Below are positions 40,075-58,806 of a stretch of DNA of 64,000 nucleotides, piece by piece (position 1 is the stretch's first letter; the number at the start of each line of letters is the position of its first letter). Both the position numbers and the translations under genes were made by a program. Origin of the DNA: Arcobacteraceae bacterium (GTDB lineage: Bacteria > Campylobacterota > Campylobacteria > Campylobacterales > Arcobacteraceae); NCBI GenBank assembly GCA_048268245.1, contig JBLWVX010000001.1, positions 138,327 to 202,326 on the forward strand. The letters are read 5' to 3'. The notes beneath the pieces are model-generated. The model worked only from the letters and a program-made list of their open reading frames with translations. It had not been told where the DNA came from and made no database searches.

Positions 40075-41571
40075 TTAAAAGAATCCTAAAGCATCTTTGC
40101 TGTAAGAAGTTAAGATATTTTTAGTGTGTCTGTAAGAGTTTAACATCATCATGTGAGTTTCTCTACCGATACCTGATTTTTTGTATCCACCAAATGATGC
40201 ATGTGATGGGTATAAGTGGTAACAATTCACCCATACTCTACCAGCTTCAATTCCTCTTGAGAATTTATGTAATTGGTGAGCATCTCTTGACCATACACCT
40301 GAACCTAATCCGTAGATAGTGTCATTTGCGATTTCTAATGCTTCTTCTTCAGTTTTAAATGTAGTTACAGATAATACAGGTCCAAAGATTTCTTCTTGGA
40401 AGATTCTCATTTTATTGTGACCTTTGAAGATTGTTGGTTGAATATAGAATCCATTTGGATATTTTTCAGACTCTAAGATATCTCCACCAATTAAACACTC
40501 AGCACCCTCTTCTTTACCAATTTTAATGTACTCAGTAATTTTCTCTTTTTGGCTTAATGAACATTGGGCACCCATCATGTTTTCAGTATCTAAAGGATCA
40601 CCTAATTTAATAGCTTTAACTCTCTCTAATACTCTTGCCATAAATGGCTCATAGATATCTTCATGGATTAATGCTCTTGATGGACAAGTACAAACTTCAC
40701 CAGAGTTAAATGCGAATAATACTAAACCTTCAATTGCTTTATCAAAGAACTCATCATCAGCATCCATAATTGAAGGCATAAAGATATTTGGAGATTTACC
40801 ACCTAATTCTAATGTTGATGGAATAATGTTTTCAGTTGCATATTGCATAATTAACTGACCAGTTGTAGTTTCACCTGTAAATCCAACTTTTTTGATGTCT
40901 GGGTGAGTTGATAAGTGTTTACCAATTTTTCCACCTGCACCATTAATAATGTTGATTGTACCTGCTGGTAATACCTCTGCAATTGTTTCCATTAATACTA
41001 AGATTGACATTGGAGTAGCTGATGCTGGTTTCATAACTACACAGTTACCTGCTGCTAATGCAGGAGCTAATTTCCAAGCTGCCATTAATAATGGGAAGTT
41101 CCAAGGAATAATTTGAGCTACAACTCCGTATGGCTCATATACTTCTTGAGAAATAGTGTTTTCATCTAAATCTGAAACAGTTCCAGACTCAGCTCTAATT
41201 ACAGATGCAAAGTATCTGAAGTGATCTACAACTAAAGGAACATCAGCATTTAATGTTTCTCTAATAGTTTTACCATTATCTAAAGTTTCAGCAATTGCTA
41301 ATGCTTCTAAGTTACCTTCAATAGCATCTGCTATTTTGTTTAATAAATTACTTCTTTCTACTACAGAAGTATGCTTAAATGATTCAAAAGCTTTCATAGC
41401 AGCTGCAACTGCTGCATCAACATCTTCTTCATTTGATCTAGGAATTCTTGTTAAAGTTTCTCCATCTACAGGTGAAATATTTTCAAAATACTCTCCACTT
41501 TTTGGAGCAAGCCATTCTCCACCAATAAAGTTCTCATATTGAGCTTTGTACTGCGGTTTACTATAAATCAT
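40075..41571 (-). CDS. aldB: NAD-dependent acetaldehyde dehydrogenase (AldB/ExaC/AcoD type)
   Basis: QIIPWNFP, FTGETTTG, LELGGKSP, GEVCTCPSR, EEIFGP, GIGRETH. Confidence 0.93.
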   Translation of the reverse strand: MIYSKPQYKAQYENFIGGEWLAPKSGEYFENISPVDGETLTRIPRSNEEDVDAAVAAAMKAFESFKHTSVVERSNLLNKIADAIEGNLEALAIAETLDNGKTIRETLNADVPLVVDHFRYFASVIRAESGTVSDLDENTISQEVYEPYGVVAQIIPWNFPLLMAAWKLAPALAAGNCVVMKPASATPMSILVLMETIAEVLPAGTINIINGAGGKIGKHLSTHPDIKKVGFTGETTTGQLIMQYATENIIPSTLELGGKSPNIFMPSIMDADDEFFDKAIEGLVLFAFNSGEVCTCPSRALIHEDIYEPFMARVLERVKAIKLGDPLDTENMMGAQCSLSQKEKITEYIKIGKEEGAECLIGGDILESEKYPNGFYIQPTIFKGHNKMRIFQEEIFGPVLSVTTFKTEEEALEIANDTIYGLGSGVWSRDAHQLHKFSRGIEAGRVWVNCYHLYPSHASFGGYKKSGIGRETHMMMLNSYRHTKNILTSYSKDALGFF

Positions 41572-41790: not shown

Positions 41791-43707
41791 ATGAAAACAT
41801 ATAACTATACAATTAAAGACGAATCTTTAGAACTGTTAATAGACTTTGACACTTTAAAAAAAGAAAAAAACATATTAATACAAATTTTTTGTGGTCAATC
41901 AAAAGAAATTATGAAAACTATTCTAAATAAATTGAAAAAAGAACTTCCTCAAGCAATTTGTATTGGCTCATCTACTGATGGAGAGATAGACAATGCAAAT
42001 ATTTCTACAAAAAGAACAGTAATATCTATATCAGTATTTGAAAAAACTCAATTAAAAGTAGCCTATGTACAAAATGACAACTCTTATATAAATGGTCAAA
42101 AACTAGCAAAGCAGTTATGTAATGAAGATACAAAACTACTTATTACATTTACTGATGGTGAAACTACAAATGGGGAAGAGTTTTTAAAAGGTATAAGCTC
42201 TATTAATAGTAAAGTAGTTGTAAGTGGTGGAATGGCAGCAGATAATGCAACCTTTAAAGAAACATTTATTTTATGTCAAGATAAGATTATTACAAAAGGT
42301 GCAGTTGCTGTATCTCTTAACTCTAAAGATTTAAAAATTTGTAATGCTTATAACTTTAACTGGTCACCAATAGGAATAGATCATGAAATAGAAGAAGTTA
42401 AAGATAATAGGGTTTATAAAATCTCAGGATTAACACCTTTAGACTTTTATGAAAAATATTTAGGTGAATATGTTGCAAAAGCCTTACCTGCAACAGGAAT
42501 AGAGTTTCCTTTAATTGTACAAAAGAATGGAATGCCACTAGCTAGAGCTGTAATTCAAAAACATAGTGATGGAAGCTTAAGTTTTGCAGGTAATTTAAAT
42601 AAAGGGGATATTGTAAAGTTAGGCTTTGGTAATGTTGAGCTTATAATGAACAACCCTTTACAATCTTTATTTAATAAGTGTTCAGTAACAGGTGTTGAGT
42701 CATTTTTTATCTATACTTGTATGGCAAGAAGAAGATATATTCCTGATTTAATTGATATTGAAATTAAGCCATTTTCAGAAATTGCAAATACATCAGGATT
42801 TTTTACATATGGAGAGTTTTATCATAATGATGGGCACAATGAGTTATTAAACCAAACATTAACAGTTGTTGGACTTAGTGAAAATAGTGAAATAACTTAT
42901 GAAGAAAAAGAAGAAGTAGAAGAAAAAAATGACAATGATGATATAAGTGAACAAGCAAGAAGCTTACAAGCTTTAACACATCTAATTGAACAATCTTCAA
43001 AAGATTATAGTAATCAATCTAAGAAGTTAGAAGAAGGAAATAGATACGCTCAAAATTTGCTTGAGTCACAAAAACAGTTTTTAAAATATACAATTCATGA
43101 AACAAATACTCCCCTTTCAATTATTATGGGGAATATTGACATGTATGAAATTGAGCATGGAAAAAACAAATATTTATCTAATATTGAAGTTGCTATGAAA
43201 AATGTTTTTAGTATTTACGATGATTTAAGTTACTTAGTAAAAAAAGATCATGTAAATAAAGCAACACATGAAATAAACTTAGTTGATTTTGTAAGAAGTA
43301 GAATTGAGTTTTTTACTCAAACTGCCCTAAAATTTAAATCAACACTAAATTTTATTCATAATATTGATGAAATAAATATAAGTTTCAATGAGATTAAACT
43401 TCAAAGAATAGTTGATAACAATCTTACAAATGCAATTAAATATACATTACCAAATGAAACTATATATGTAAAGCTTATATATAGAAATAATGAGTGTGAC
43501 TTTATAATTGAGAGTCGTTCAGTTCAAATACTAGAACCTCAAAAGATTTTTGAAGAGTATTATCGAGAAGAAGAATCAAAAGATGGTTTTGGACTTGGAC
43601 TAAATCTTGTAAAAAGAATTTGTAGTGAAGAAAATGTTGGAATAAAACTAGAGTCTGGTGAAAACTGGGCTTCATTTACTTATACATTTAAAGGAATTGA
43701 AAAATGA
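41791..43707 (+). CDS. Cytoplasmic FIST-N/FIST-C domain histidine kinase
   Basis: IGSSTDGEI, GGMAAD, W.PIG, C.ARR, GFFTYGE, LNQT (FIST); IHETNTPLS H-box; NAIKY; GFGLGL; no TM segments. Confidence 0.88.
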   Translation: MKTYNYTIKDESLELLIDFDTLKKEKNILIQIFCGQSKEIMKTILNKLKKELPQAICIGSSTDGEIDNANISTKRTVISISVFEKTQLKVAYVQNDNSYINGQKLAKQLCNEDTKLLITFTDGETTNGEEFLKGISSINSKVVVSGGMAADNATFKETFILCQDKIITKGAVAVSLNSKDLKICNAYNFNWSPIGIDHEIEEVKDNRVYKISGLTPLDFYEKYLGEYVAKALPATGIEFPLIVQKNGMPLARAVIQKHSDGSLSFAGNLNKGDIVKLGFGNVELIMNNPLQSLFNKCSVTGVESFFIYTCMARRRYIPDLIDIEIKPFSEIANTSGFFTYGEFYHNDGHNELLNQTLTVVGLSENSEITYEEKEEVEEKNDNDDISEQARSLQALTHLIEQSSKDYSNQSKKLEEGNRYAQNLLESQKQFLKYTIHETNTPLSIIMGNIDMYEIEHGKNKYLSNIEVAMKNVFSIYDDLSYLVKKDHVNKATHEINLVDFVRSRIEFFTQTALKFKSTLNFIHNIDEINISFNEIKLQRIVDNNLTNAIKYTLPNETIYVKLIYRNNECDFIIESRSVQILEPQKIFEEYYREEESKDGFGLGLNLVKRICSEENVGIKLESGENWASFTYTFKGIEK

Positions 43708-44363
43708 AAATATTACTTTTAGAAGATGATATTATGTTAAATGAGATGATTACAGAATATTTAACTTCAACTGGTCATTCTATTACTAATACAACAAAAG
43801 GTGACGAGTGTCTAAATATTTTAGAAGAAGAAAAGTTTGATTTATTAATACTTGATATAAATGTACCAAATATTGATGGATTAACTGTTTTAGAGCAATT
43901 ACATGAAAAGAAAAGAATGATACCAACTATATTTATATCAGCACTTATTGATATTGAAGATATTGATAGAGCCTTTAATATAGGTTGTCATGATTATCTA
44001 AAAAAACCTTTTCACTTAAGAGAGCTAACACTTAGAATAAATAAAATTCTAAAAACAAATATTGCTCCACAAAAACATAAAAGGTTATCAAAAAACTATA
44101 GTTTTGATGCAGAGACTATGACTTTATATTTTAATAATGAGCCTCATATCTTACCTAAAAGACAACTTCAAATTATTGAATTACTAGCTCATAATAGAAG
44201 CTTAGTTGTACAATACGATATGTTTAGAACCTATGTTTGGAATGATGATTTTATAGACAATGCGACAATTAGAGCAGAAGTAAATAGAGTAAAAAAAGTT
44301 TTAAAAGAAGACTTTATTAAAAATATTAGAGGAAGTGGTTATATGGTTGAAAGACCAAACTAA
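43704..44363 (+). CDS. OmpR-family response regulator
   Basis: LLEDD, LDINVP, KPF...EL..RI, C-terminal winged helix I.NIRGSGY; overlaps the kinase stop. Confidence 0.92.
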   Translation: MKILLLEDDIMLNEMITEYLTSTGHSITNTTKGDECLNILEEEKFDLLILDINVPNIDGLTVLEQLHEKKRMIPTIFISALIDIEDIDRAFNIGCHDYLKKPFHLRELTLRINKILKTNIAPQKHKRLSKNYSFDAETMTLYFNNEPHILPKRQLQIIELLAHNRSLVVQYDMFRTYVWNDDFIDNATIRAEVNRVKKVLKEDFIKNIRGSGYMVERPN

Positions 44364-44372: not shown

Positions 44373-45242
44373 CTAAAACTTAATAGATACATAAAAGCTT
44401 AAATCAAACTCATTATCATCACTTAGAAAGTTGTTTTTTCTATACTCCACATAAGATGGTTTTGTTGTTGTTTCAAACTCACTTCTAGGTAACCATTCAT
44501 GATAAACCCAATGAATAAACTTTAAAACATCCCCATGTACTCCTTGCAAATCAAATCTAGCATAAACTCCATCAGCTATTTTAAAGTCAGGAAGTCTATC
44601 ACTTTTTACCTCTTCCTTTGTTTCAAGACAAGCAATATATTGACAATCATTTAAAGGAGTTATTGAAGGGTTATCATGAAAAAGCGCAATCTCTTTATAC
44701 TCTTTTATATCATTTGATAATCTCCAAACTTGCATTTTCTGCCACGCTTGTTTTATATTTATGTTATAACCCCTATTTCTAATATAGTATGCTTTTCTAA
44801 AAGGCATCTTTACAATGGTTGGTGTTATTTCATTAAAATTAGCTTTTGACTCCATGGCTTTGGGTGACTGTTGTAAAATATTGTTAGAGTATTCTTTATA
44901 TCCACCCTTTTTCCATTGTTTTGGAGTCATTTCAAATCTCTCTTTAAAAGTTTTAATAAAAGATGATTGAGAGGAGTATCCACACTCATTTGCAATTTCA
45001 GATATTGTTGAATATTTATTTGTAAGAAGTAAATTAGATGCTTTTTGTAATCTAATAGATTTGATACTCTCATAAATATTTTTTCCAAATGCTTCTTTGA
45101 ATATTCTATGCATATGAAATTTACTAATATCTAAATCAATACTAAGCTCTTCTATATCGATGTTTGTTTCAATATGAGTATAAATATAAAACATTATATC
45201 ATTGGCTATTTTTGTTCTTTTTTGTAGTGTCTCTTTTTTCAT
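44373..45242 (-). CDS. AraC family regulator with GyrI-like effector domain
   Basis: SKFHMHRIFK, IANECGYSSQSSF...FKERF.MTP; C-terminal HDNP, G.YA.F, WVY.EWLP; likely start 45242. Confidence 0.9.
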   Translation of the reverse strand: MKKETLQKRTKIANDIMFYIYTHIETNIDIEELSIDLDISKFHMHRIFKEAFGKNIYESIKSIRLQKASNLLLTNKYSTISEIANECGYSSQSSFIKTFKERFEMTPKQWKKGGYKEYSNNILQQSPKAMESKANFNEITPTIVKMPFRKAYYIRNRGYNINIKQAWQKMQVWRLSNDIKEYKEIALFHDNPSITPLNDCQYIACLETKEEVKSDRLPDFKIADGVYARFDLQGVHGDVLKFIHWVYHEWLPRSEFETTTKPSYVEYRKNNFLSDDNEFDLSFYVSIKF

Positions 45243-45382
45243 AAGATAGATTATAGCACAAATAAAATATAAAAGTAGCACTAACAAACAATTTTAACAG
45301 CACTTAAAAAGAAGAATTATTTCTGAATTTTTCATACAATAACTACAATTCAAATATAAGTAAGTATTTTAGGAAGAAAATT

Positions 45383-46050: not shown

Positions 46051-47184
46051 TCAAGCTTCTAAAAATGAAATAGAATTTTTTCTATTTCTGTAAAAAATCT
46101 TTTGATCGCTATAAGTTATACTATCTTGGATTTTTTGCGTAACAACTGCATGGTCAGGTGATTTAGAACACACAGGATCTGCAGCATTCATCTCTCCTGT
46201 TAGAGCAAAGGCTTGGCATCTGCAACCGCCAAAGTCTTTGTCTCTTTCATCACAAGTACGACAAGGCTCTTTCATCCAACTATCACCTCTAAAATAATTA
46301 AAGGCTTTTGAATCATACCATACTTCTTTTACAGAGTTTTCTTTTACATTTGGAAAATCTAAAGGTAAAGTATTTGCTGTATTACATGGAAGTGCAACCC
46401 CATCAGGATTGATAGTTAAAAAAGTAGTACCCCATCCATTCATACAAGCTTTTGGTCTATCAGCAAAATAATCAGGTACAACTAAAAATACTTTCATAGC
46501 ATCATCTTTTTGTCTATACTCATTTACTTTTGCTTTTGCTTCATCTAATTGCTCTTTTGAAGGAAGCAATGCATTTATATTTTTTAATGCCCAACCATAA
46601 TATTGAATATTTGCAATTTCTAAATAATTTGCCCCAAGAGTTTCAGCAAATTCAATAATCTGCCCTACTTGATGAATATTTTGTCTAGTAATACAAGTAT
46701 TAACTATAAGTTGAAGTCCTGCTTCTTTTACTTCTTTAGCAAAAGCAATTTTTTCTTTATATGAATTTTTATTGTTAGTAATTAAAGTCATAGTATTTTC
46801 ATCATGAGATTGAATACCTAACTGTACTGTTTTAAGGCCTGCATCTTTTAGTTTTTTTACTATTCCTTTTGGAGCACCAACACCTGATGTGATTAAATTA
46901 GTATAAAACTTTAAATCATTTGCTTTTTGAACTATATCAACTATATCTTTATTTAATAAAGGCTCTCCACCTGAAATACCAAGTTGAACAGCACCAAGTT
47001 CTCTAACCTCATCCATTACTCTAAACCAATCATCTTTGCTCATAGCATCTTTTGTATTTACAAAATCAAGTTGATTATAACAATATGAACACTCTAAAGG
47101 ACACTTATGAGTTAATTCTAAAAGTACCCATAAAGGGGGCTTTATATCTAGTTTCTCATTATTGTTTTTATCATTAATCGACAT
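46051..47184 (-). CDS. pqqE: PqqA peptide cyclase (radical SAM/SPASM)
   Basis: PPLW.L.ELTH.CPLECSYC, SGGEPL, QYYGWA, KACMNGWG, DFGGCRCQA; likely start 47184. Confidence 0.97.
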   Translation of the reverse strand: MSINDKNNNEKLDIKPPLWVLLELTHKCPLECSYCYNQLDFVNTKDAMSKDDWFRVMDEVRELGAVQLGISGGEPLLNKDIVDIVQKANDLKFYTNLITSGVGAPKGIVKKLKDAGLKTVQLGIQSHDENTMTLITNNKNSYKEKIAFAKEVKEAGLQLIVNTCITRQNIHQVGQIIEFAETLGANYLEIANIQYYGWALKNINALLPSKEQLDEAKAKVNEYRQKDDAMKVFLVVPDYFADRPKACMNGWGTTFLTINPDGVALPCNTANTLPLDFPNVKENSVKEVWYDSKAFNYFRGDSWMKEPCRTCDERDKDFGGCRCQAFALTGEMNAADPVCSKSPDHAVVTQKIQDSITYSDQKIFYRNRKNSISFLEA

Positions 47185-47443
47185 ACTGCACCCACTTTCT
47201 TTCAAATGCTTCATTAAAAAACGCTTCTATATCTTTTTCTAAACCAGACATTTCAAACTTTTTTTCTAAAGTTTCTACTATCTCATTAAAACTTTTTGTT
47301 CCATCACACTGGTTCATAATTTCACCAGCACTTTGATTTAACTGAACCATACCTTCAGGATACAATAATACAAAACAGTCTTGTGCTTTTTCAAATTGTA
47401 ATTGAAAGTGATTATTCACTACAATTAATTTTTCTTTGTGCAT
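47174..47443 (-). CDS. pqqD: PqqA-binding chaperone
   Basis: QFE.AQ...[16 protein letters not shown]...CDG. Confidence 0.95.
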
Positions 47444-48170
47444 CTTCTACCCCTTCTATATTAAAGTATGGAGGTTGTTTTAATTCATATGCTAGATATA
47501 AAGCATCACACATAGTCCATAAAATATCTAATTTAAATTGTAATATTTCACAAGCTTTACTTTGTAGTTCAACTGTATTAAACTCTTCTAAAGTTAATGA
47601 TAATCCATGTTGGACATCTCTTCTTGCTTCACTTAATCTTTTTTGGAAATATCTTAAACCTTTTGGTTCAATCCAAGGATAATTATCAGGCCAAGTATTA
47701 AGTCTTTGTTGATGAATTTCAGGAGCAAACATCTCAGTTAAAGATGACATTGCAGCCTCTTTCCAAGGTCTTTGTTTTGCAAAATTTATATATGCTTCAA
47801 CTGCAAACTTAACAGATGGTAAAACATATTTATGAGAAATTAAGTCCTGCTTATTTAATCCAACAGCTTCACCTAATTCAAGCCAAGCTTCAATTCCTCC
47901 ACCAACACTATCATGGTCAATAATTCTATCTATCCACTTTCTTCTATCTTCTAAAGGAGGATTATTTGACATGATTGCAGCATCTTTAATAGGAATTGCT
48001 GTTTGATAATAAAATCTATTTGCTACCCATCCTTGAATCTCTTCTTTTGTACATTCACCTTTATACATTCTAATATGAAATGGATGATGTATATGATACA
48101 TCTTACCCATAGCTCTTAATTTTTGTTCAAACTCATCTTTTGAAAGTAATTGGTCAATTTTTTTAGTCAT
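47412..48170 (-). CDS. pqqC: Pyrroloquinoline-quinone synthase
   Basis: [41 protein letters not shown]. Confidence 0.97.
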
Positions 48171-48186
48171 AATATTCTCTCCTTTA

Positions 48187-49104
48187 TTATATTTCTATAC
48201 TCATACCATCATAAGAAACTTCAATTCCATGTGAAATAAGCTCCTTATACTCATCACTACTCTCATCTAAGATAGGATTTGTATTATTTATATGAATTAG
48301 TATTTTTCTTGGTTTTTCTAAACTATCTAAAACTTTGATAAGTCCCTCTTCTCCACTTAATGGAATATGTCCCATATCAGTTCCAAGCTTATTTGAAAAG
48401 TTTCCTTTTATCATTTCATCATTTGTCCATAATGTTCCTTCTATTAAAAGAACATCTGCATTTCTCATTTCTTCAAATACATGGTCTTCCATAACACCAA
48501 GTCCAGGTAAATAAAATAGTCTTTTTCCTGTATTTTTATTTACAACAGTTATTCCTATATTATCACCCTTTCTAGGTTTATCTCTATACTCTGAGTATGG
48601 AGGTGCATTTGAAATTAATGCATGGGCATAAAACTCATAACTAGGCATTACAGGAATTTCAAATTTTGTAGTTGAATCTGGTAAGATTTCATGCCAGGCA
48701 GTTCCTCCACCATCCCAATGTTTTAGCATTTTCATAGTAGGAAATGATGTGTTTAATTCTTCATTTACTTCTTTTGTACAGTAAATTTGATGAGGACATC
48801 CCTCTCTTAACATAAGTAGACCTGTTGTATGGTCAATTTGTGCATCATTGAAAACAATAGCTTTTATTTTTGTTTCTCTTTTTTTAGTTGGGTGTAAAAA
48901 AGGGGAATTATGAATTTGCTCTAAAATATCTGGTGAAGTGTTAAATAAAACCCAGTTTTCACCATCTTCACTTATAGTAATAGAACTTTGTGTTCTTCTT
49001 TTAATAGTTTCTTTACCTTCTCTGTAACCCTTACAGTTATCACAGTTACAGTTAAACTGAGGAAGTCCTCCTCCTGCACCTGATCCTAAAACTTCTATTC
49101 TCAT
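48187..49104 (-). CDS. pqqB: PQQ biosynthesis protein B
   Basis: [39 protein letters not shown]. Confidence 0.97.
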
Positions 49105-49117: not shown

Positions 49118-49186
49118 CTCTTTTTATAATTAAGTCTATTTTAGACTTAATTATAAAAAGAGCAAACTAGCCGAAACTAGTTTACT
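49118..49186 (-). terminator. Tandem hairpins between pqqA and pqqB
   Basis: Perfect 21-bp stem CTCTTTTTATAATTAAGTCTA / TAGACTTAATTATAAAAAGAG (49118-49162) plus AAACTAG / CTAGTTT stem (49164-49183). Confidence 0.75.
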
Positions 49187-49197
49187 CAAATTAGGTT

Positions 49198-49272
49198 CTA
49201 CTCGTTACAAATATACATTGTTACTTCAAAACCAAATCTATTATCTACAAACATAGGTGTTTCCCATTTCAT
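49198..49272 (-). CDS. pqqA: PQQ precursor peptide PqqA (absent from ORF track)
   Basis: My translation MKWETPMFVDNRFGFEVTMYICNE*; E-x3-Y core; strong RBS AAGGAGG. Confidence 0.97.
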   Translation of the reverse strand: MKWETPMFVDNRFGFEVTMYICNE

Positions 49273-49308: not shown

Positions 49309-51099
49309 CTACTTATGTAATTTGAACACGTGTACTGAACCACCTTGGTTTAAAAGCTTAACAGCTTTTGCAACTTCACCACCCCATAAAGGAACGGCTC
49401 CACCCCAACCAGATACTACAGCAATATATTGCTCACCATTTTGCTCCCAAGTAATAGGAGAAGAAACGATTCCAGATCCAACATTAAATGAGTATAACTC
49501 TTTACCCGTTTCATCATCTAATGCTAAAAGTTTACCTTCTGGATTACCTGTAATTACTAAACCACCAGCAGTAGTTAAAACTCCACCCCATAATGGTGCT
49601 TTGTTTTTATAAATCCACTTAATTTTTCCAGTTACAGGATCAACAGCTTTGATAGCACCAATGTGATCTTCGTAAATAGGTTTAATAGTAAATCCAGCAC
49701 CTAAGTATGCTGCACCTTTTTTATAAGAAACAGGTTGATTCCAAATATCCATTCCCCACTCATTTGCAGGAACATAGAATAATCCAGTTTTTTGTGAGTA
49801 TGCCATTGGATTCCAGTTTTTCCCACCTAAGAATGAAGGTACTGAGAATACAGATTTACCTTTTTTCCCATTTACAGGAGCTCCAGGTCTATTATCTTCA
49901 TTTACTATAGGTCTACCATTTTCATCAATTCCTTTAGCCCATGTGATTTTATCAACAAAAGGAGTAGATCTGATGTATTTACCATTAACTCTATCTAAAA
50001 CATAGAAGAATCCATTTTTATCAGCAGTAGCACCGGCTTTTACAACATTTCCATTTTCATCTTTGTAATCAAATGGTATAAATTCAGCCATACCATCGTA
50101 ATCCCATCCATCATTTGGAGTAGTTTGGTAATGCCATACAACTTTACCAGTATCAGGATTTACAGCAACTCTTGAAGCAGTGTATAAGTTATCACCTTTT
50201 CTTAAGTGAGAATTCCAAGGTGCAGGGTTTCCAGTTGGAACATAAATTAAGTCTGTTTCAGGATCGTAAGTTACACCATTCCATGGAGCACCACCACCAT
50301 GTTTCCAAGTATCACCTTCCCAAGTAGCATTTAAAGTACCAGTAATACCATTTTCTTTACCATTTAAGTATCCCATATGTCCTTCAACCATTGGTCTAGT
50401 CCATATTAATTTACCTGTATTTGGGTTTCTAGCCTCTACTTTACCAACAACACCAAATTCACCACCAGATACACCAGTAATTAACATATCTTTTACGATA
50501 AGCGGAGCAGCTGTAAATGAGTACCCATCTTTATACTTAGCAATTCTTTTTTTCCATTTAACTTTACCAGTCTTTCTATCAAGAGCAACTAGTTTTGCAT
50601 CAAGTGTTCCAAAAATAACTAAATCACCATATAATGCAGCACCTCTGTTAATAACATCACAACAAGGTAAAATTGCATCAGGAAGTCTTGCATCATATTG
50701 CCATAACTCTTCACCAGTTAAAATATCAATAGCAAAAAGTCTAGAGTAAGAAGCAGTTACATACATAACTCCATCTTTAACTACAGGTTGAGACTCTTGT
50801 CCTCTTTGTTTTTCCCCACCAAAACTAAAGTTCCATACTGGAACTAAATCTTTAATTGTGTCTTTGTTGATTTGAGTTAATGTTGAGTATCTTTGACCTT
50901 TTGGTCCTAAACCATAACTAACTACATCACCAGGTGTTTTTGCATCATTTACGATTTCATCATATGTAACTGGTGCAAATGATGGTTTTGTAACTTTTGT
51001 TATGCTATTATTTTCTGTGTTGCTAGACATAGCACATCCACTAATTAGTGCAGCTAGTGTAACGGCAACTGCACTAGTTAGCAATCTATTCTTATTCAT
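49309..51099 (-). CDS. pedH: PQQ-dependent alcohol dehydrogenase, lanthanide-type (PedH/ExaF-like), predicted lipoprotein
   Basis: [12 protein letters not shown], vicinal [31 protein letters not shown] (D-x-D), [18 protein letters not shown]; lipobox ISGC. Confidence 0.88.
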
Positions 51100-51151: not shown

Positions 51152-51183
51152 AGTATACATAAGAAATATAGCCTCAGTTTAGC
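51152..51183 (-). promoter_or_regulatory. pedH-pqq promoter
   Basis: Minus strand GCTAAA-N5-GCTATA (51183-51167)-N9-TATACT (51157-51152). Confidence 0.8.
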
Positions 51184-51961
51184 TATGATTTACTTTTTTA
51201 GATTTAAAACCTACAAAGGCCATTATTAGGGTTATTACTAAAGAAATTAGCACAATTATTAAAGAGTTTGCATCAATTTTTAGATATAAAGTAAATCTTA
51301 TAGACTCAACTATATAAGTAAATGGATTATAAGATGATATATTAAATAAAATAAGTGATGAATCTTTTATTTTCCATAAAGGATATAAGGCACTACTTAA
51401 GAAGAACATCGGAAAAATCACAAAGTTCATTACTGTAGCAAAGTTCTCTAACTGTTTAATTACAGAAGAAATAAACAGTGCAAATGCATTTAGTATTATT
51501 GAAGAAATCATAATAATTGGAATTGTTGCTAAAATAGCTAAAAAAGATATATCAACCCCATAAACTTTTGCAATGAGTAAAAAAGTTACCGCTTGTATTG
51601 TAGATACAATTGCTGTTGCAAACATCTTACAAAAAAGTAAATAGTTTCTATTGATATAAGAAGATAGTAAAATTTTCATACTTCCCATTTCTCTATCAAA
51701 TATCATAGTAAGACTACTTTGCATACCATTGAAAAGTAAAACCATTCCAACAAGTCCTGGGACTATGTATGTTTCATAAGTGATATATGTTTCATATGGA
51801 GGAATAATAGCTAAACCTAAAGCCGTTTTAAAACCCACTGAGAAAATAAATAACCATAATAAAGGTCGCACTAGAGCTGAAAAAAATCTACTTTTTTGTT
51901 TTACAAATCGAATTAACTCTTTATAGATAATTCCTTTCATACAATTTATATAAATATTCAT
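51179..51961 (-). CDS. ABC-2 type permease of PQQ-ADH systems (PedC-like)
   Basis: RFFSALVRPLLW, PPYETYITYE.YIVPGL, FNGMQSSL, QLENFA.VMNFVIFPMFFLSSALYPLW. Confidence 0.88.
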   Translation of the reverse strand: MNIYINCMKGIIYKELIRFVKQKSRFFSALVRPLLWLFIFSVGFKTALGLAIIPPYETYITYETYIVPGLVGMVLLFNGMQSSLTMIFDREMGSMKILLSSYINRNYLLFCKMFATAIVSTIQAVTFLLIAKVYGVDISFLAILATIPIIMISSIILNAFALFISSVIKQLENFATVMNFVIFPMFFLSSALYPLWKIKDSSLILFNISSYNPFTYIVESIRFTLYLKIDANSLIIVLISLVITLIMAFVGFKSKKVNHS

Positions 51962-51964
51962 CTT

Positions 51965-52687
51965 TTACCTTACTATTTGATTGAATGTATCAACCAAGTT
52001 ATCTTTTTCATACTTTTTAACAATATCTTTTACAATTCCAGACTCTACTATCTCACCTTTTTTAATAAATGATATATCATCATCTTCTTTTACTTCATCA
52101 AAAAGATGTGTAATCCATAAAACACTTAAGTTTTCTCTTTTTACTAAATCTCTAACATAATCTAAAATATCAAATCTACTTTTTAAATCAAGCCCAACTG
52201 TAGGCTCATCTAAAAGTAATAGCTTTGGTTTATTTATCAAAGCTCTCAAAATTTCAACTCTTCTTCTATGACCACCATTTAATTTTCTAGCAGTAATATC
52301 TAGTGAATCCTGTAATTCAAGCCTTACTATTTCATTTTCTACAGATTTTATAGTATCTTTAAAACCTAAACCTTTAAGTGAACCATAATAATAAAGATTT
52401 TGTCGTACGGTTAAATCTAAATCCAAAGTTGGTTCTTGAAAAACAATACCTATATCTTTTAAGGATTTTGAATAATTTTTTATTGAGTGTTGATTTATAT
52501 TTATAGTTCCAACTTCAAGTTTTAGAAGTCTAGTAATTAGTGAGAATACTGTAGATTTTCCAGCTCCATTTAGTCCTAGCAGAACAGAAAAACTGCCCTG
52601 CTTTATACTAAAAGATATATTATTTAATACCTTTTTAGATCCATAAGAAAAATCTACATCTTTTAATTCTAAGATATTTTTTTCCAT
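51965..52687 (-). CDS. ABC ATP-binding protein of PQQ-ADH systems (PedB-like)
   Basis: GLNGAGKST.FSLITRL, PTLDLDL, LNGGHRRRVEI.RAL, LLLDEPTVGLD. Confidence 0.9.
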   Translation of the reverse strand: MEKNILELKDVDFSYGSKKVLNNISFSIKQGSFSVLLGLNGAGKSTVFSLITRLLKLEVGTININQHSIKNYSKSLKDIGIVFQEPTLDLDLTVRQNLYYYGSLKGLGFKDTIKSVENEIVRLELQDSLDITARKLNGGHRRRVEILRALINKPKLLLLDEPTVGLDLKSRFDILDYVRDLVKRENLSVLWITHLFDEVKEDDDISFIKKGEIVESGIVKDIVKKYEKDNLVDTFNQIVR

Positions 52688-52689
52688 GA

Positions 52690-53649
52690 TTATTTACTTG
52701 GGATTACTGCTAAGCCCCAAGGGTATCTTCCAACTTGAATAGTTTTCTTAACTTTTAAAGATTCTACATCAATAACAGAAACATCACCACTTACACCATT
52801 TGTAGTATAAAGTTTCTTTTCATTATTTGCAAAATCAAGCATCCAAACTCTACTTCCAACTAATAAGTATTTGATTACTTTATATGTCTTTGCATCAATT
52901 ACAGCTACATGATTTGCAGGTCCTAAACCAACAAAAGCATATTTACCATCACTTGTTAATTTAATACCAACTGGTTGAATTAAATCTTTAAAGATTCCAG
53001 GAATTTTAAAAGAAATCTTTGAAAGTGGCTCTTTAGTTTTTGTATCTATAACCATTACAGTTCCACCAATTTCACTTGATGCCCAAATTTTATCACCACT
53101 TTTTGTAAATTCAATATGTCTTGGTCTTTGATCTACTAAAGTATTATGAACAATCTTTTTAGTTTTTGTATCAATCCAATGTAAAAAGTTTGATGTTTCT
53201 GATGTATTAATAGCTATTGATCCATCTGGACTTACAGCCATACCCTCAGGCTCAATACCAACTTCTATTTGAGCAACTACATCTTTTTTTTGAACATCTA
53301 CAACTGTTACAATTCCATCATCTTCATTTGATATGTAAAGTTCTTTACCATCTGGATGTAAAGCAAATTGTTCTGGATCTTCACCTGATGGAAGGCTATA
53401 TAAAATTTCACCAGTTTTTGTATCCATAGCTTGAACTGTATCATCATCACTTGCACAAATATATAGTTTTGAATAATCTTTTGTAAGTAGAATTCCTCTA
53501 GGTCTTTGACCAACCTCATAAGTTTTTATAACTTTATCTGTGTTTGAATCTATAACAGTAATAGTATTATCTTTCTCATTTGAAACAAAAATAGTATCTG
53601 CTAGTAAACTTGTTGATAATAATGCAGATGCTAATAATAATCTCTTCAT
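52690..53649 (-). CDS. YVTN beta-propeller of PQQ-dependent catabolism (PedA2-like)
   Basis: Signal peptide; VSNEKDNT, VGQRPRG, LPSGEDPE, VG.EPEG, SSEIGG, GPANHVAV, VGRYPWG. Confidence 0.88.
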   Translation of the reverse strand: MKRLLLASALLSTSLLADTIFVSNEKDNTITVIDSNTDKVIKTYEVGQRPRGILLTKDYSKLYICASDDDTVQAMDTKTGEILYSLPSGEDPEQFALHPDGKELYISNEDDGIVTVVDVQKKDVVAQIEVGIEPEGMAVSPDGSIAINTSETSNFLHWIDTKTKKIVHNTLVDQRPRHIEFTKSGDKIWASSEIGGTVMVIDTKTKEPLSKISFKIPGIFKDLIQPVGIKLTSDGKYAFVGLGPANHVAVIDAKTYKVIKYLLVGSRVWMLDFANNEKKLYTTNGVSGDVSVIDVESLKVKKTIQVGRYPWGLAVIPSK

Positions 53650-53825: not shown

Positions 53826-54242
53826 TTATTTTACAATAAAAGTAGCTCTTTCTCTATCACTTTTAGCTGATGGAAGACCTAATGTATAAGTACCTGGTTT
53901 AATAGGGATAAAAGTAAGTTCAATTTCACCCTCATCATCAAATTCAAAACTATCAATTCCTAATGGTCTTACTTCAATATCATTGATAGATACTTGATTA
54001 ACCCAAATATTTCTAAAAAATTCAGGACCTACAATAGGCACTTCTCTTGAACCATCACTTTTTAATACTAATTTATAGTATTTACCTGCTTTTAAATTAT
54101 AAGGTTTATCTGCCAAAGTTTTACCTGCACCAATTGTAATAGGCTCTAAAGTTGTTCTTGAATGTAATAAGCCCTTTATATTTGCAAAAGCAAACTCAGC
54201 TGTTAAAATTAACATAATTGCAACTGTTAAAAATCTTTTCAT
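53826..54242 (-). CDS. Exported cupredoxin-like protein lacking copper ligands
   Basis: Signal peptide; L.AGKYY.L and ELTFIP.KPG.Y strands; acidic FEFDDEGE; no Cys, and the single His is outside the ligand region. Confidence 0.6.
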   Translation of the reverse strand: MKRFLTVAIMLILTAEFAFANIKGLLHSRTTLEPITIGAGKTLADKPYNLKAGKYYKLVLKSDGSREVPIVGPEFFRNIWVNQVSINDIEVRPLGIDSFEFDDEGEIELTFIPIKPGTYTLGLPSAKSDRERATFIVK

Positions 54243-54370: not shown

Positions 54371-55519
54371 ATGAGACTATTACCATTATTACTTATATTT
54401 GCAACTTTTCTAAATGCAAATATACTAGAAGTAAATATTTTATACCTAGAGCAGAAGATCAAAAAGCCACCAGTATTATCAAATGTTATAGAAGACCCAG
54501 ATGATTTAGGACTAAAAGGTGCCCAAATAGCCATAAAAGACAGCAATAAAAGCGCAAGGTTCTTAAATCAAAAATACAATTTAGTAGAGGCTATTTCTTA
54601 TAAAAAAGAAGAGCTTATTAGTGCCTATGAGAAGTTTATAAATGAAAACAATAGCTATGTTATTTTAAATGTAGAAGATGATTTATTAAAAGAACTTTTA
54701 ACAAATAAACTTGCTTCAAAGACTCTTTTTATTAATGCAAAAAGTCAAAACTCAAATCTTAGAAAGAACTATTGTCAAGATAATCTTTTACATACTATAG
54801 CAAGTAATGCTATGTTATATGATGGATTGGTACAATTTTTAGTAAAAAGAGACTTTAAAGACATCTTTTTAATTAGTGGAGAACATGAAAAAGATTTACT
54901 TATTAAAGAAGATATTAAAAGATCTATTAAAAAATTTGGTGCAAAAATTGTAGAAGAGAAAGTTTGGGATAATAATAGTGATATTAGAAGAAAAGCAAGT
55001 ACTGAATTTCCATCATTCACACAAGCTTCAAAATATGATTTAATATTACTTGCAGATTATCATGGAGACTTCGGTGAATTTATGTATTTTAATACTTGGC
55101 TTCCAAGACCTGTTGCTGGAACACAAGGTTTAACACCTGTTACATGGCATAAAGTTATTGAGGCTTGGGGAGCTGCGCAAATGCAAAGTAGATTTGAGAA
55201 GTTCTCAAATAGATGGATGCAATCTCTTGACTACTCAAACTGGGTTGCAGTTAGGTCAATTGTAAATGCACTAACTCATACAAAAACAGCAGATTTAAAA
55301 ACAAATATTAAATATATTTATTCAAAAGAGTTTGAACTTGCAGCATATAAAGGAAGAAAACTTACTTTTAGAGACTATAATGGACAATTAAGAATGCCTG
55401 TAGCATTAATTCAACCAAGAGCCTTAGTTTCAACTTCTCCACAAGTTGGATTTTTACATCCAAAAACTGACTTAGATACTTTAGGTATTGCACCATTTGA
55501 AATGGAGTGTAAAAAGTAA
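54371..55519 (+). CDS. LIV-fold substrate-binding protein of PQQ-ADH systems (PedA1-like)
   Basis: GAQ.AI.D.N...RFL.Q, LLHT, KKFGAKIV.EK.W, PRPVAGT.GL.P..WH...E.WGAAQ.Q.RF, YKG.KL.FR...GQLR, SPQ.GFLHP...LDTLG. Confidence 0.85.
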   Translation: MRLLPLLLIFATFLNANILEVNILYLEQKIKKPPVLSNVIEDPDDLGLKGAQIAIKDSNKSARFLNQKYNLVEAISYKKEELISAYEKFINENNSYVILNVEDDLLKELLTNKLASKTLFINAKSQNSNLRKNYCQDNLLHTIASNAMLYDGLVQFLVKRDFKDIFLISGEHEKDLLIKEDIKRSIKKFGAKIVEEKVWDNNSDIRRKASTEFPSFTQASKYDLILLADYHGDFGEFMYFNTWLPRPVAGTQGLTPVTWHKVIEAWGAAQMQSRFEKFSNRWMQSLDYSNWVAVRSIVNALTHTKTADLKTNIKYIYSKEFELAAYKGRKLTFRDYNGQLRMPVALIQPRALVSTSPQVGFLHPKTDLDTLGIAPFEMECKK

Positions 55520-55974
55520 TGAAAAAGCTAATACTTCTTTGTACAATGATTTGTTTTTTAAATGCAAACTACAAGATTGTCGAAAATGAAAATCTTTTTA
55601 GTGTAAAAATAGAAAATGAAAATTTCCAAGAAGTATTAGTAAACCTAAAAGATGAGATAGGTTTTCAAGGTTTTGTGATTGTACATGAACTAAATCTTGC
55701 AAAATCCACATCAAATGTAGCAAAAGCTTTAAAACAAAATGCTGTTTTAACAAATGGAGTGAATCTACTTATGTGTAAAAGTAGTTTTACTTTAGAAATG
55801 ATTCAAGAAAACCCTTCAAATATTACTTATTGTCCTTTAGGTATCTCTGTTTATGAAGTTAAAAATGAAGTTTTTATATCTTATAAGAAATATCATAAAT
55901 TAAACTTTGATGATAAGATTTTTGAAGAAGTAAATGAGAAGTTAAAAAATCTAATATTAAAGAGTTTGGATTAA
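55519..55974 (+). CDS. DUF302 family exported protein
   Basis: GF.IVHE.N, L.C......M, YCPLGISVYE. Confidence 0.75.
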   Translation: MKKLILLCTMICFLNANYKIVENENLFSVKIENENFQEVLVNLKDEIGFQGFVIVHELNLAKSTSNVAKALKQNAVLTNGVNLLMCKSSFTLEMIQENPSNITYCPLGISVYEVKNEVFISYKKYHKLNFDDKIFEEVNEKLKNLILKSLD

Positions 55975-56369
55975 TATTTCCCAAACTCTTTGTAAGTACC
56001 ATTATCTAAAAGTAAATATACTGTTTTTACTTCTTTATCATTTTCATATGAAGGAAGTGAAAGTCCCATTGAACCTTTAGGGATATTTCCTAGAAACTCT
56101 TTCATAGCTTTTGCTGGAACATTTCCTTCAAATACATAATCTTTAAAAATTGTTGTATTACATGATTGAACCTCTCTTGGAACACCAACACTATATTTTA
56201 AACCTTTTACATTTACCATTTGTACTATTTCAACTTCATCGGCTATTTTTTTCATATCATCTAACCAAGATTTAGGACAAGTACTTGTCATAGGTTGGAA
56301 AATCTGCATTTTACTCTCACTTGCAAATACTGCAAGAGCTAGCATTAAACTTAAAACTATTTTTTTCAT
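55971..56369 (-). CDS. DUF411/CopG-like periplasmic protein with altered metal ligands
   Basis: LK..VGVP.EVQSCNT....YVFEGNVPA..M..FL......GLSLP matches the DUF411 pattern SCHT...EGHVP with His to Asn. Confidence 0.7.
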   Translation of the reverse strand: MKKIVLSLMLALAVFASESKMQIFQPMTSTCPKSWLDDMKKIADEVEIVQMVNVKGLKYSVGVPREVQSCNTTIFKDYVFEGNVPAKAMKEFLGNIPKGSMGLSLPSYENDKEVKTVYLLLDNGTYKEFGKY

Positions 56370-57064
56370 ATTTCTCCTTTTAATATATTTGGGTATATCT
56401 CAAACATTTCATTTTTTACCTCATCAACTCTTCGTTGATTGGCTTTTCTGTTTGTATTATTGTCGAATTCTAAAATTGTAGTTGCAGGATTTTTTGATAA
56501 AAAGAAAATCCTATTTGAAAAGTATATTGCTTCACTTAAATCATGAGTTACTAAAACAACTTTTGGAGTAAACTTTTCACACAGTTTTAAAAACTCCTCT
56601 TTTAACTGCATAGCCGTTGGATAATCTAGTGAAATAAAAGGTTCATCTAAAAGTATAAGTTTAGGTTCATTTATAAAAGCTCTTATTAAAGCCACTCTTC
56701 TTTTCATTCCCCCTGATAAAGAGTTAGGATAGAAATCTAAAACTTCTTCTAAATTTATAAGCTTTAAAAACTCTTTGATTTTATTTTCATCTTTATTTTT
56801 TGAAACTAATAAAAGATTTTCTTTTATAGTTAACCATGGTATTAATCTATCATCTTGAAACATAAAAGATATTTCATCACTATCTTTTTTTACTTCTCCA
56901 ATATAATTATCATCTAATGATGCTAAAATATTTAAAAGTGTTGTTTTACCACATCCTGATGGACCTATTATAGATATAAACTCACTTTTTTTTAGACTTA
57001 TATTTATATCTTTTAAAACAGTTTTTTCTTTATAACTTTTGTTTTCAATACAAATTTCTAACAT
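56366..57064 (-). CDS. ABC ATP-binding protein, NitT/TauT type (LutE-like)
   Basis: GPSGCGKTT, FQD.RL.PW, LSGGMKRRVAL, LDEPF.SLD. Confidence 0.85.
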   Translation of the reverse strand: MLEICIENKSYKEKTVLKDINISLKKSEFISIIGPSGCGKTTLLNILASLDDNYIGEVKKDSDEISFMFQDDRLIPWLTIKENLLLVSKNKDENKIKEFLKLINLEEVLDFYPNSLSGGMKRRVALIRAFINEPKLILLDEPFISLDYPTAMQLKEEFLKLCEKFTPKVVLVTHDLSEAIYFSNRIFFLSKNPATTILEFDNNTNRKANQRRVDEVKNEMFEIYPNILKGEI

Positions 57065-57065
57065 A

Positions 57066-57803
57066 CTATTTCCATTTATTTATATATAAATCTATTGGTT
57101 TTAAAAATAGTTTTTCGATTAAAAGTATTACTAATACAAAAGCAAATGAATAAGCTAATATTGAAGTAATATCAAAAAACTGAAAAAACATAGAAATCTT
57201 AAAACCTATTCCATCACTTCTTCCAAGAAGCTCAACCACTAATACAATTTTCCAAATCAAAGATAAACACAGTCTTGTAGAAGCCATAATATAAGGATAA
57301 ATTTGAGGTAAAAAAACTTTGAAAAAAGTCTCTTTATTTGAAACTTTATATACTTTTGCTAATTGCATATATTTTCTATCAATTGCTTTTGTACCTTCTC
57401 TTACATTTACTATTACTATTGGAAGTTTATTTAATATTACGGCTAAAAGTGCAGCAAAATCTGTAAGTCCAAACCAAATATAACAAATAACAATTGTTAC
57501 AAGTGCTGGAATATTTAATCCAAGAATTAAAATAAAATCAAAAATATCATCTATTTTTTTAGACACTCCCATTAAAATACCAAAAACGATACCAAGTAAC
57601 ATAACTACAAAAAAACAAACAAATACTCTATATAAAGTAATTCCTAAATTATAAAGTAAATCTGAATTTATAGTATGATCATATAAACTAGTACCTATTT
57701 GAGTAATAGATGGAAAAGTCAAGCTTGATATAAAAAAAGCTGTTACTTCCCAAATACCTAAAAAAGCTATTATTGATATGATTCTAATATTTTTATTTAG
57801 CAC
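57066..57803 (-). CDS. ABC permease, NitT/TauT type (LutF-like)
   Basis: LNIPALV.I..CYIWFGL, NK.P, REG, L.WKIVLVVELLGRSDG.GF. Confidence 0.85.
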   Translation of the reverse strand: MLNKNIRIISIIAFLGIWEVTAFFISSLTFPSITQIGTSLYDHTINSDLLYNLGITLYRVFVCFFVVMLLGIVFGILMGVSKKIDDIFDFILILGLNIPALVTIVICYIWFGLTDFAALLAVILNKLPIVIVNVREGTKAIDRKYMQLAKVYKVSNKETFFKVFLPQIYPYIMASTRLCLSLIWKIVLVVELLGRSDGIGFKISMFFQFFDITSILAYSFAFVLVILLIEKLFLKPIDLYINKWK

Positions 57804-57815
57804 TTTTTACTCTTC

Positions 57816-58775
57816 TTACTTTTCAAAATTCCAAAAAGTTTTTTCATCTAAGCTTTTAGCATTTGAAAGCAAGTTTTTTCCACCCTCATTTAAAAGTATT
57901 TCAAATACTTTTTTTGAATCTTCTATATTTTTAGATGAAAACTCTTTTATTATTCCTTCTTTAAAGCCTTCCTTCAATGATAAGAAAACTTTTTCATCTT
58001 TTGCTTTCATAAGAGGTCTTATTCTATCCCACTCTTTTTCATCTGATAAAAGGATATCTTTTGCCTCATGACTAGCTTTTATAAATGAGTTATAAAGCTT
58101 TTTATTTTTTAAAGCAACATCTCTTCTAAATGTCCATCCAATTAATGAAATATCTTCTTTTACACCTAATTGTTCTAAAATATCACTCATTTGTATTAGT
58201 GCTTTTGCATCTTTTGCTTTTAGTTTTGCATTAAAATGCCAAAAATTAATAGCACTATTTAATGAACCATCTAATATCTTTTTATACAAGATAACTGGAC
58301 TTGCAAATACAGGAGTTATTAAATCTTTTAAATCTTTTCCATGCTTATATTTACTGTATGCTCTTAAAAGTAACCAACTTTTATCATAAGGTCCACCTGC
58401 AACTCCAAGCTTTTGACCCTTTAAGTCTAAAAGTGTTTTGGCATTTTGCTTTGTATATATTGTACCTGTAGCTTTTGAATATGGATAAAAAGTAAAATCT
58501 TTTCCATTTGCCCTTTGAGTATTTACCCAAAGCCAATCAGTAACTATCATATCTACAGAGTCAGCTTGTATTGCAACAGATGAAGCATTTTTTGAAGCAA
58601 GTTTTAAAACTTCTAAATCAAAACCATACTTTTTATCAAGTTTATTATATTTGATTACATCAAGTTCCCAGTTAACTGTTCCATAAGCTAAAACACCTAC
58701 TTTTAATTTATCTTCTGCATTAACATTTATAATACTTATTATTGTTATTAATAGTGCTACTAAAAATTTAATCAT
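57816..58775 (-). CDS. ABC substrate-binding protein, NMT1/TauA fold (LutA-like)
   Basis: GVL.YGTVNWELDVIK, IVTDWLWV, PYS, GVAGGP.DKSWLLL, NFWHF.AKL; likely start 58775 (RBS GGAG). Confidence 0.75.
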   Translation of the reverse strand: MIKFLVALLITIISIINVNAEDKLKVGVLAYGTVNWELDVIKYNKLDKKYGFDLEVLKLASKNASSVAIQADSVDMIVTDWLWVNTQRANGKDFTFYPYSKATGTIYTKQNAKTLLDLKGQKLGVAGGPYDKSWLLLRAYSKYKHGKDLKDLITPVFASPVILYKKILDGSLNSAINFWHFNAKLKAKDAKALIQMSDILEQLGVKEDISLIGWTFRRDVALKNKKLYNSFIKASHEAKDILLSDEKEWDRIRPLMKAKDEKVFLSLKEGFKEGIIKEFSSKNIEDSKKVFEILLNEGGKNLLSNAKSLDEKTFWNFEK

Positions 58776-58806
58776 GTATTTTTTCTCCAAAGCTTAAATA
58801 TCAAGT

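Follow-up and report, generated by a model that had tools for sequence, protein, structure and literature searches.

We analysed a stretch of 64,000 nucleotides (hereafter the window) from the genome of an Arcobacteraceae bacterium (assembly GCA_048268245.1, contig JBLWVX010000001.1, positions 138,327 to 202,326 of the forward strand; unless stated otherwise, coordinates below refer to the window), with emphasis on one minus-strand open reading frame (ORF) of 596 amino acids at 49309..51099. The ORF starts with an ATG at 51099, and a Shine-Dalgarno sequence, AAGGAG, lies 5 nt upstream of it. On the basis of sequence comparisons, the gene quite probably encodes a PedH/ExaF-type, lanthanide-dependent pyrroloquinoline quinone (PQQ) alcohol (ethanol) dehydrogenase that is made as a lipoprotein. 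Enzymes of the same type are PedH of Pseudomonas putida KT2440 (6ZCW/6ZCV) and ExaF of Methylorubrum extorquens AM1.

Identity of the dehydrogenase and its metal site

The predicted protein scored 783.4 bits against the NCBIfam family TIGR03075 (PQQ-dependent dehydrogenase, methanol/ethanol family; cut-off 480.05). When solved structures in the PDB were searched with HMMER, PedH (6zcw) was the best match (850.1 bits, E 9e-255) and the calcium enzyme ExaA (1flg) the next one (710.9 bits), while XoxF and MxaF structures scored far lower, at about 265-355 bits. An AlphaFold2 model, built on an alignment of 26 sequences (alignment A1), reached a pTM of 0.85, with pLDDT below 50 at residues 1-32; the modelled fold is an eight-bladed beta-propeller. 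A Foldseek search with this model returned 6zcw as the top match (TM 0.89/0.95, 65% identity over 558 columns), and the comparison with 1flg gave TM 0.89/0.91. Indeed, ExaA of Pseudomonas aeruginosa (1FLG) and PedE, which are Ca-dependent, have the same fold as the dehydrogenase and belong to the same family.

Every active-site residue of PedH has its counterpart in the translation. These are the vicinal pair Cys146-Cys147 (50659..50664), invariant among the 26 sequences of A1; Glu214 at a metal ligand position within GGEFG (residues 212-216, 50452..50466); Asn296 at another such position within GNPAPWN (residues 290-296, 50212..50232); and WDYDG (residues 332-336, 50092..50106), in which Asp333 takes the position of the catalytic base and Asp335 the lanthanide-coordinating position, all encoded on the minus strand. 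Glu214 and Asn296 were placed by translation, HMMER alignment and A1, and the two aspartates, also invariant in A1, by translation and HMMER. The dehydrogenase resembles PedH in the whole set of metal ligands, including the additional Asp, as well as in the vicinal disulfide. In the HMMER alignments, WDYDG coincides with WDFDG in PedH (6zcw/6zcv) and with WDFSG in the calcium enzyme ExaA (1flg). The position of Asp335 is thus occupied by Ser in ExaA, as it is in PedE. The blocks with Glu, Asn and Cys-Cys show few or no differences in these alignments. The initial annotation had listed the same four motifs and the difference from WDFSG of ExaA, and translation and alignment bore it out in each case.

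An Asp was present at the equivalent of position 335 in all 120 best database homologues. According to the available text of a mutagenesis study, this extra Asp is required in XoxF1 (D320A) and in ExaF (D319S) (bioRxiv 10.1101/2020.02.25.964783). Assignment of the dehydrogenase to the lanthanide type is supported by the presence of the Asp, by PedH being the closest solved relative and by the position of the sequence within an Asp-bearing clade (see below). Contigs assembled from RNA libraries (four runs from three studies), 95-99% identical to the gene, covered 17-27 of its 30 bins, and one contig spanned the gene start with the codon for Cys22 (see below) kept. Since such libraries can contain DNA, the coverage hints only weakly at expression of the gene.

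The genome comprises 2,681,560 bases in 57 contigs, with a G+C content of 27.9% and an estimated completeness of 99.28%. When it was searched with TIGR03075, one match was obtained from two scored candidates, and tblastn detected no second PQQ alcohol dehydrogenase in it, returning the gene itself and a single further match of 28.5 bits (E 1.4). The dehydrogenase is the only PQQ alcohol dehydrogenase of the assembly. The statement of the initial annotation that no Ca-type paralogue occurs in the window can thus be extended to the whole genome, where the second, PedE-type gene it had proposed to look for was not found. In P. putida, PedH is paired with the Ca-dependent PedE under a lanthanide switch, as described in the available text of PMC6839425; no such pair exists in this genome, which lacks a calcium enzyme. 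Because no Ca-type PQQ alcohol dehydrogenase is encoded, PQQ-dependent alcohol oxidation should require lanthanides, without a Ca/lanthanide switch.

The predicted lipoprotein signal and its distribution

The first 22 residues (51034..51099, minus strand) are predicted to be a Sec-type signal peptide of type II (lipoprotein), which closes with the lipobox I-S-G-C; the codon for Cys22 is at 51034..51036. A lipobox rule similar to PROSITE PS51257 describes [LVI][ASTVI][GAS]C with the cysteine at around residues 15-35, a basic n-region and an uncharged h-region. The N-terminus of the dehydrogenase, with Lys3, Arg5, an uncharged stretch and I-S-G-Cys22, agrees with this rule. Residues 23-44 (50968..51033, minus strand) are rich in Ser, Thr and Asn and would represent a tether; in the HMMER alignment, the part corresponding to mature PedH begins at residue 44. 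Both the lipobox and the Ser/Thr/Asn linker had been described in the initial annotation and were found as such in the translation. The lipobox and the 22-residue tether distinguish the dehydrogenase from PedH, whose signal is an ordinary one and which the available text of PMC12997753 lists as periplasmic.

Genes for the processing of lipoproteins are present in the genome: Lgt (228 bits), LspA (102.9 bits) and Lnt (177.3 bits) all scored above their cut-offs, and the gene for Lnt (apolipoprotein N-acyltransferase) lies in the same window at 26239..27471 on the plus strand, about 22 kb from the dehydrogenase gene. The match to LolA was weak (25.9 bits, cut-off 23.6). A lipobox census of the genome covered 3042 stop-to-stop ORFs with a minimum length of 100 amino acids; 81 passed the rule, an upper bound including some false ORFs. 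These 81 candidates had Gly at -1 in 42 cases, Ser at -2 in 15, Ile at -3 in seven and Ala at +2 in 13; Asp was not among the seven commonest residues at +2. Judging from these counts, the sequence ISGC-A of the dehydrogenase fits the usage of the organism itself.

To follow the lipobox among relatives, all 184 species-representative genomes of Arcobacteraceae were searched. A match was obtained in 58 of them, and 57 full-length genes from 53 genomes were analysed; the other five genomes were left unclassified, since their genes were fragmentary, split or truncated at the end of a contig. The full-length genes fell into 48 Asp-bearing (WD[YF]DG) and nine Ser-bearing ones (WDFSG, about 630 amino acids). 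The lipobox was retained in 27 of the 48 Asp-bearing orthologues and was missing from 21, and eight of the ten genus codes with the gene include the anchored form. The cysteine is residue 22 or 23 if numbering begins at the conserved start (in two rows the script chose an upstream ATG, which gave positions 30 and 42). The stretch between the Cys and the domain alignable to PedH measured 17-22 residues, with a median of 22, in 26 of the 27 lipobox orthologues, the remaining one having been left out of the measurement as its anchor motif was missed. Across these 26, the tether consisted of Ser, Thr and Asn to 45%, its sequence differing between clades. Many anchored orthologues have a Val directly after the Cys (ISGCV). 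The soluble forms possess the same hydrophobic core, continued by ...ALISAQA/NSN or ...SASA/G, so that A-x-A replaces G-C.

Four lines of evidence, i.e. the rule, the processing genes, the usage in the genome and the conservation in the family, argue that the lipobox reflects more than chance, and conservation appears to be the most telling of them. The prediction of the dehydrogenase as a lipoprotein is supported by the lipobox, which is conserved within clades though not universally, the low-confidence tether in the structural model and the presence of Lgt, LspA and Lnt. At the level of sequence, this backs the membrane-tethered enzyme that the initial annotation had proposed.

A maximum-likelihood tree was computed from the 57 sequences (first 75 alignment columns removed, quick search, branch support by the Shimodaira-Hasegawa-like approximate likelihood ratio test, SH-aLRT, only). 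The 48 Asp-bearing and nine Ser-bearing sequences were separated with 100% SH-aLRT support. Among the Asp-bearing rows, the tree requires at least four changes of the lipobox state, or three if only the starred branches are counted, and none of 500 label shuffles gave as few changes. When the Ser clade was used as an outgroup, three anchored lineages and one soluble row were found at the unresolved base. For this reason, an anchored ancestor followed by several losses is no less parsimonious than a soluble one followed by gains, although gain and loss cannot be separated by this method.

As for the metal types, 44 of the 53 genomes harboured the Asp type only, four both types and five the Ser type only. 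As judged from sequence types, the lanthanide-only state is the norm in the family, and the classical Ca/lanthanide pair also occurs there. ExaA-like genes were thus present in nine of the 53 genomes, unlike in the genome studied here. In the four two-enzyme genomes (G155, G156, G168 and G170; loci L034, from G155, as well as L044, L043, and L053 with L006), the two genes are situated a few kb apart. In G155, for example, the Ser-type gene (1014.5 bits to ExaA vs 661.6 bits to PedH) is followed by a pentapeptide-repeat gene, pedB, pedC and the anchored Asp-type gene (L034, 569..6826). Both G155 and G156 encode a Ca enzyme with an ordinary signal and a lanthanide enzyme with a lipobox. No link between the anchor and a Ca paralogue was apparent, as the lanthanide forms of the four two-enzyme genomes split into two anchored and two soluble ones. 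Separately, two Ca-type (WDFSG) sequences, L049 (from G017) and L050 (from G043), also pass the lipobox rule, with L-A-S-C or L-T-S-C at residues 17-20 or 16-19. Their Cys precedes a good signal-peptidase-I site of the A-x-A type, and their lipoprotein status is ambiguous.

Outside the survey of Arcobacteraceae, we took the 150 representatives, clustered at 50% identity, that ranked best in the enzyme family as a whole and kept the 123 that were full-length (at least 500 amino acids); 20 of these 123 passed the lipobox rule. The Asp-bearing ones among them included P0121 (61% identical to the query) and P0154. Of the 120 neighbours listed for P0121, 118 were checked and six had a lipobox, five of them with a long low-complexity tether; the named ones were Proteobacteria, for example Alkalilimnicola, Azospirillum and Marinobacter. 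The best 120 database homologues of the dehydrogenase, where named, came from Arcobacter, Arcobacteraceae, Poseidonibacter, Malaciobacter, Aliarcobacter and Sulfuricurvum, and 50 of them passed the lipobox rule, three ambiguously; a protein 97% identical to the dehydrogenase is encoded by a cultured relative. Lipobox-bearing PQQ alcohol dehydrogenases from elsewhere, seen only as database sequences, belong to other clades (XoxF3, quinohaemoproteins and proteobacterial PedH-like enzymes), and none of these proteins is characterised. Arcobacteraceae differ from these clades in that the anchored form is in the majority, with soluble forms interspersed between closely related sequences. The initial annotation had assumed a more unusual enzyme than these surveys allow, given that 44 of the 53 family genomes are lanthanide-only and a lipobox occurs in 20 of the 123 representatives.

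In the open-access literature, we found no report of a PQQ alcohol dehydrogenase bearing a lipobox. The word lipoprotein occurs nowhere in PMC10875860 (on XoxF3), in PMC12997753 (a 2026 review of the ped cluster) as far as its text was available, in a 2024 review or in a preprint of 2026 that deals with novel lanthanide PQQ enzymes. Likewise, no open-access report was found that ties this family or its phylum to lanthanides or PQQ dehydrogenases, though the gene-distribution survey of Huang et al. 2019 (ISME J) may bear on the matter.

The gene cluster and its counterparts in other genomes

The dehydrogenase is a PedH orthologue and, as judged by its sequence and neighbours, an ordinary enzyme in an ordinary ped-like cluster. 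Its gene is part of a co-oriented minus-strand string consisting of a 138-codon ORF, pedA2, pedB, pedC, the dehydrogenase gene, pqqA, pqqB, pqqC, pqqD and pqqE, where the ped gene names follow a table in the available text of PMC12997753. Downstream of the dehydrogenase gene, pqqA (49198..49272) encodes 24 amino acids containing E-V-T-M-Y. The pqqB-E block occupies 46051..49104 and comprises pqqB (48187..49104, 377.6 bits), pqqC (47412..48170, 331.1 bits), pqqD (47174..47443, recognised as an ORF) and pqqE (46051..47214, 478.7 bits), the three scores all being above cut-offs. A terminator-like hairpin on the same strand (49160..49187; 12 pairs followed by a T run) is located directly after pqqA and before pqqB, the place expected of an attenuator that sets the ratio of pqqA to pqqB-E.

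Upstream, at 51179..53649, lie the minus-strand genes for the permease PedC (51179..51961; TIGR03861, 344.1 bits), the ATPase PedB (51965..52687; TIGR03864, 282.6 bits, below the cut-off of 302.25) and the beta-propeller protein PedA2 (52690..53649; TIGR03866, 502.1 bits). The first gene of the string (53826..54242) encodes an exported, cupredoxin-like protein of 138 amino acids, which has no Cys, a single His and an acidic patch EFDDEGEIE. It had no match in Pfam or NCBIfam; its neighbours in a protein atlas were labelled 'copper-binding protein family' or cupredoxin (score 0.97). The protein may be a copper-less cupredoxin-like helper, possibly a metal-binding one.

On the plus strand, a PedA1-type substrate-binding protein is encoded at 54371..55519 (TIGR03863, 422.6 bits, cut-off 413.6), and farther on the cytochrome c550 PedF, whose haem motif is CARCH and whose signal peptide is an ordinary one (58925..59338; TIGR04494, 206.2 bits, cut-off 122), a PedG-like binding protein (59342..60208; Pfam SBP_bac_3), a SoxYZ-like carrier (60218..60955; TIGR04557, 161.3 bits) and a SoxH-like metallohydrolase (60952..61857; TIGR04558, 358.1 bits). 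The interval between pedA1 and pedF (55519..58790) contains genes for DUF302 and DUF411 proteins and for another small ABC importer, made up of an ATPase, a permease and an NMT1-like binding protein; all of these are patchily present in relatives. According to their N-termini, none of the other exported proteins checked in the cluster (PedF, PedA1, the PedG-like, SoxYZ-like, DUF302, DUF411 and 138-residue proteins) has a lipobox.

On the other side of the pqq genes, an ExaC-type acetaldehyde dehydrogenase (40075..41571, minus strand; NF050026, 828.6 bits, below the cut-off of 900) is neighboured by a DUF779 protein (39588..39971, minus strand; PF05610). Three regulatory genes follow: a sensor kinase with a NosP-like N-terminal part (41791..43707, plus strand), an OmpR-type response regulator (43704..44363, plus strand) and an AraC-type regulator (44373..45287, minus strand), all scoring below equivalog cut-offs and thus assigned to a general type only. 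The regulator PedR2 of the ped system is of the LuxR type. The regulators found here, with a response regulator of the OmpR type and a NosP-like N-terminal part in the kinase, appear to differ in type from those of P. putida. Another difference is that the dehydrogenase gene here shares one string with pqqABCDE. In its remaining content, the cluster resembles P. putida's ped cluster as given in the available text of PMC12997753: PedA1A2BC, PedF, PedG-like, SoxYZ-like and SoxH-like proteins and an aldehyde dehydrogenase are common to both. According to the same text, P. putida cannot do without PedA1A2BC when its growth depends on PedH, and P. aeruginosa, which is without a lanthanide enzyme, is also without PedA1A2BC.

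When 25 proteins of the window were compared by tblastn with 20 kb around the gene in ten anchored and ten soluble relatives, no accessory gene tracking the anchor was detected; some absences in this comparison may stem from the 20-kb limit alone. The core of pedA1, pedA2BC, the dehydrogenase gene and pqqB-E was present in all 20 loci. The 138-codon ORF occurred in nine of the 20, i.e. in four of ten anchored and five of ten soluble loci. In a class-level sample of 401 genomes, the dehydrogenase gene was found in four of 23 genomes of the family as well as in the genome of the window itself, and in none of 377 genomes from 13 other families, although database proteins labelled Sulfuricurvum are on record. 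The closest relatives of the enzyme outside the family are proteobacterial. The confinement of the gene to one family of the sample, together with these proteobacterial relatives, suggests that the whole cluster was acquired horizontally.

Some further features of the window may be mentioned. Genes for ExbB/ExbD are present (38613..39591), but a TonB-dependent receptor was absent from the window, and no outer-membrane receptor for lanthanides was identified in a search that covered the window alone. On the minus strand, 1095..4859 encodes a predicted lipoprotein of 1254 amino acids (...ITFIGC) with a PhoX alkaline-phosphatase region and a choice-of-anchor I domain, and 11794..13929 a protein of 711 amino acids with an archaeo-eukaryotic primase domain of the TOTE conflict system and a helicase, a candidate defence gene.

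Competing explanations and proposed mechanism

Several observations weigh against our interpretation of the gene. The additional Asp is known to be necessary in other enzymes, which does not make it sufficient for lanthanide use. With 21 of 48 orthologues lacking the Cys, the anchor is dispensable, and because close orthologues carry an ordinary cleavable signal instead, it would not be needed for catalysis. Gly-Cys-Ala in the dehydrogenase might also serve signal peptidase I as a weak site, LolA was matched only weakly, and lipoproteins of this phylum may follow another sorting rule at position +2. By the completeness estimate, 0.7% of the genome is unassembled; a YqhD-like iron-containing alcohol dehydrogenase and short-chain dehydrogenases, which were not examined, could oxidise alcohols without lanthanides. 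Coverage by RNA-library contigs does not show transcription. Finally, the lipidation of the enzyme, its location, its metal content and its substrate are predicted in every case.

How far do these points favour other explanations? Use of Ca2+ by the enzyme in spite of Asp335, be it exclusively or as one of two accepted metals, would be compatible with an Asp shown to be necessary and not sufficient, and with a metal specificity that is here a predicted one. We nevertheless consider this highly improbable, since PedH, a lanthanide enzyme, is the nearest relative with a solved structure and agrees with the dehydrogenase at every metal ligand position, and the Ser-bearing relatives form a separate clade with Ca-dependent ExaA as best match. 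The adjoining PedA1A2BC genes, reported in the available text cited above as missing from P. aeruginosa, point in the same direction. Somewhat less improbable, yet still unlikely, is that Cys22 is not used, signal peptidase I cuts the pre-protein and the enzyme is soluble in the periplasm as PedH is. The ordinary signal in 21 of 48 orthologues speaks for this, as does G-C-A, which could act as a small-x-small site. However, the lipobox is canonical and at a position typical of the lipobox candidates of the genome, and it has been kept over eight genus codes while the tether diverged. A Val at -1 is unfavourable for signal peptidase I, and the ISGCV of many orthologues would place Val at -1 of the nearest site, which argues against cleavage by this enzyme. 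Moreover, the soluble forms have exchanged G-C for A-x-A instead of keeping the Cys.

The third alternative accepts an anchored enzyme of the lanthanide type and holds that cytoplasmic NAD(P) dehydrogenases can replace it, so that alcohol use would not depend on lanthanides obligately. It deserves more weight than the other two, even if we think it less likely than not. In its favour, the genome contains the YqhD-like gene of the iron-containing alcohol dehydrogenase family (430.9 bits), located elsewhere, and one gene of the medium-chain dehydrogenase/reductase family, and its short-chain dehydrogenases were not surveyed. However, the former scored below the equivalog cut-off of 645, and YqhD-type enzymes are mainly NADPH-dependent aldehyde reductases; the latter is of the YhdH/AcuI acrylyl-CoA reductase type (428.2 bits, above its cut-off). 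Dedicated ExaC, PedF and pqq genes, furthermore, sit together with the PQQ enzyme. The possible obligate dependence on lanthanides put forward in the initial annotation thus stands as far as the sole PQQ alcohol dehydrogenase is Asp-bearing, and has to be softened with regard to the YqhD-like gene.

Assuming a lipid-anchored enzyme of the lanthanide type, a mechanism can be proposed as follows. Lgt, LspA and Lnt would act on Cys22 by diacylglyceryl transfer, cleavage and formation of a triacylated N-terminus. The lipidated Cys22 would then hold the dehydrogenase on the periplasmic face of a membrane, with the propeller attached through some 22 flexible tether residues. In Escherichia coli, lipoproteins are sorted by a rule based on position +2; should this rule extend to the present phylum, Ala at +2 and LolA would direct the enzyme to the inner leaflet of the outer membrane. 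The Ln3+-PQQ site would oxidise ethanol and similar alcohols, electrons would reach the respiratory chain by way of the soluble cytochrome c550 PedF, an enzyme and its cytochrome carrier being a pair of the textbook kind, and the ExaC-type dehydrogenase would oxidise the aldehyde. By analogy with P. putida, PedA1A2BC may serve lanthanide handling.

From the comparisons of sequences, the anchor is an evolutionarily switchable extra, a conserved and under-described variant as opposed to a new kind of system. We can speculate further, and only tentatively, that in this family lanthanide-dependent ethanol oxidation is carried out by an enzyme that is deliberately lipid-tethered, plausibly to the outer membrane. 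The tether would retain the scarce-metal enzyme or place it by the entry route of lanthanides, and it would be switched by two-residue changes of the signal as lineages change habitat.

The close pairs of anchored and soluble orthologues represent a natural experiment on why a periplasmic redox metalloenzyme is tethered. For annotation, the lesson is that solubility of lanthanide-type PQQ dehydrogenases should not be assumed. If our interpretation is true, no PedH-type enzyme would have been described with a lipid anchor before, as far as the papers we could find are concerned. Lanthanide use would then be described for the phylum for the first time in this family, with no calcium enzyme in reserve, and the marine and animal-associated bacteria in question would depend on traces of lanthanides for their use of alcohols.

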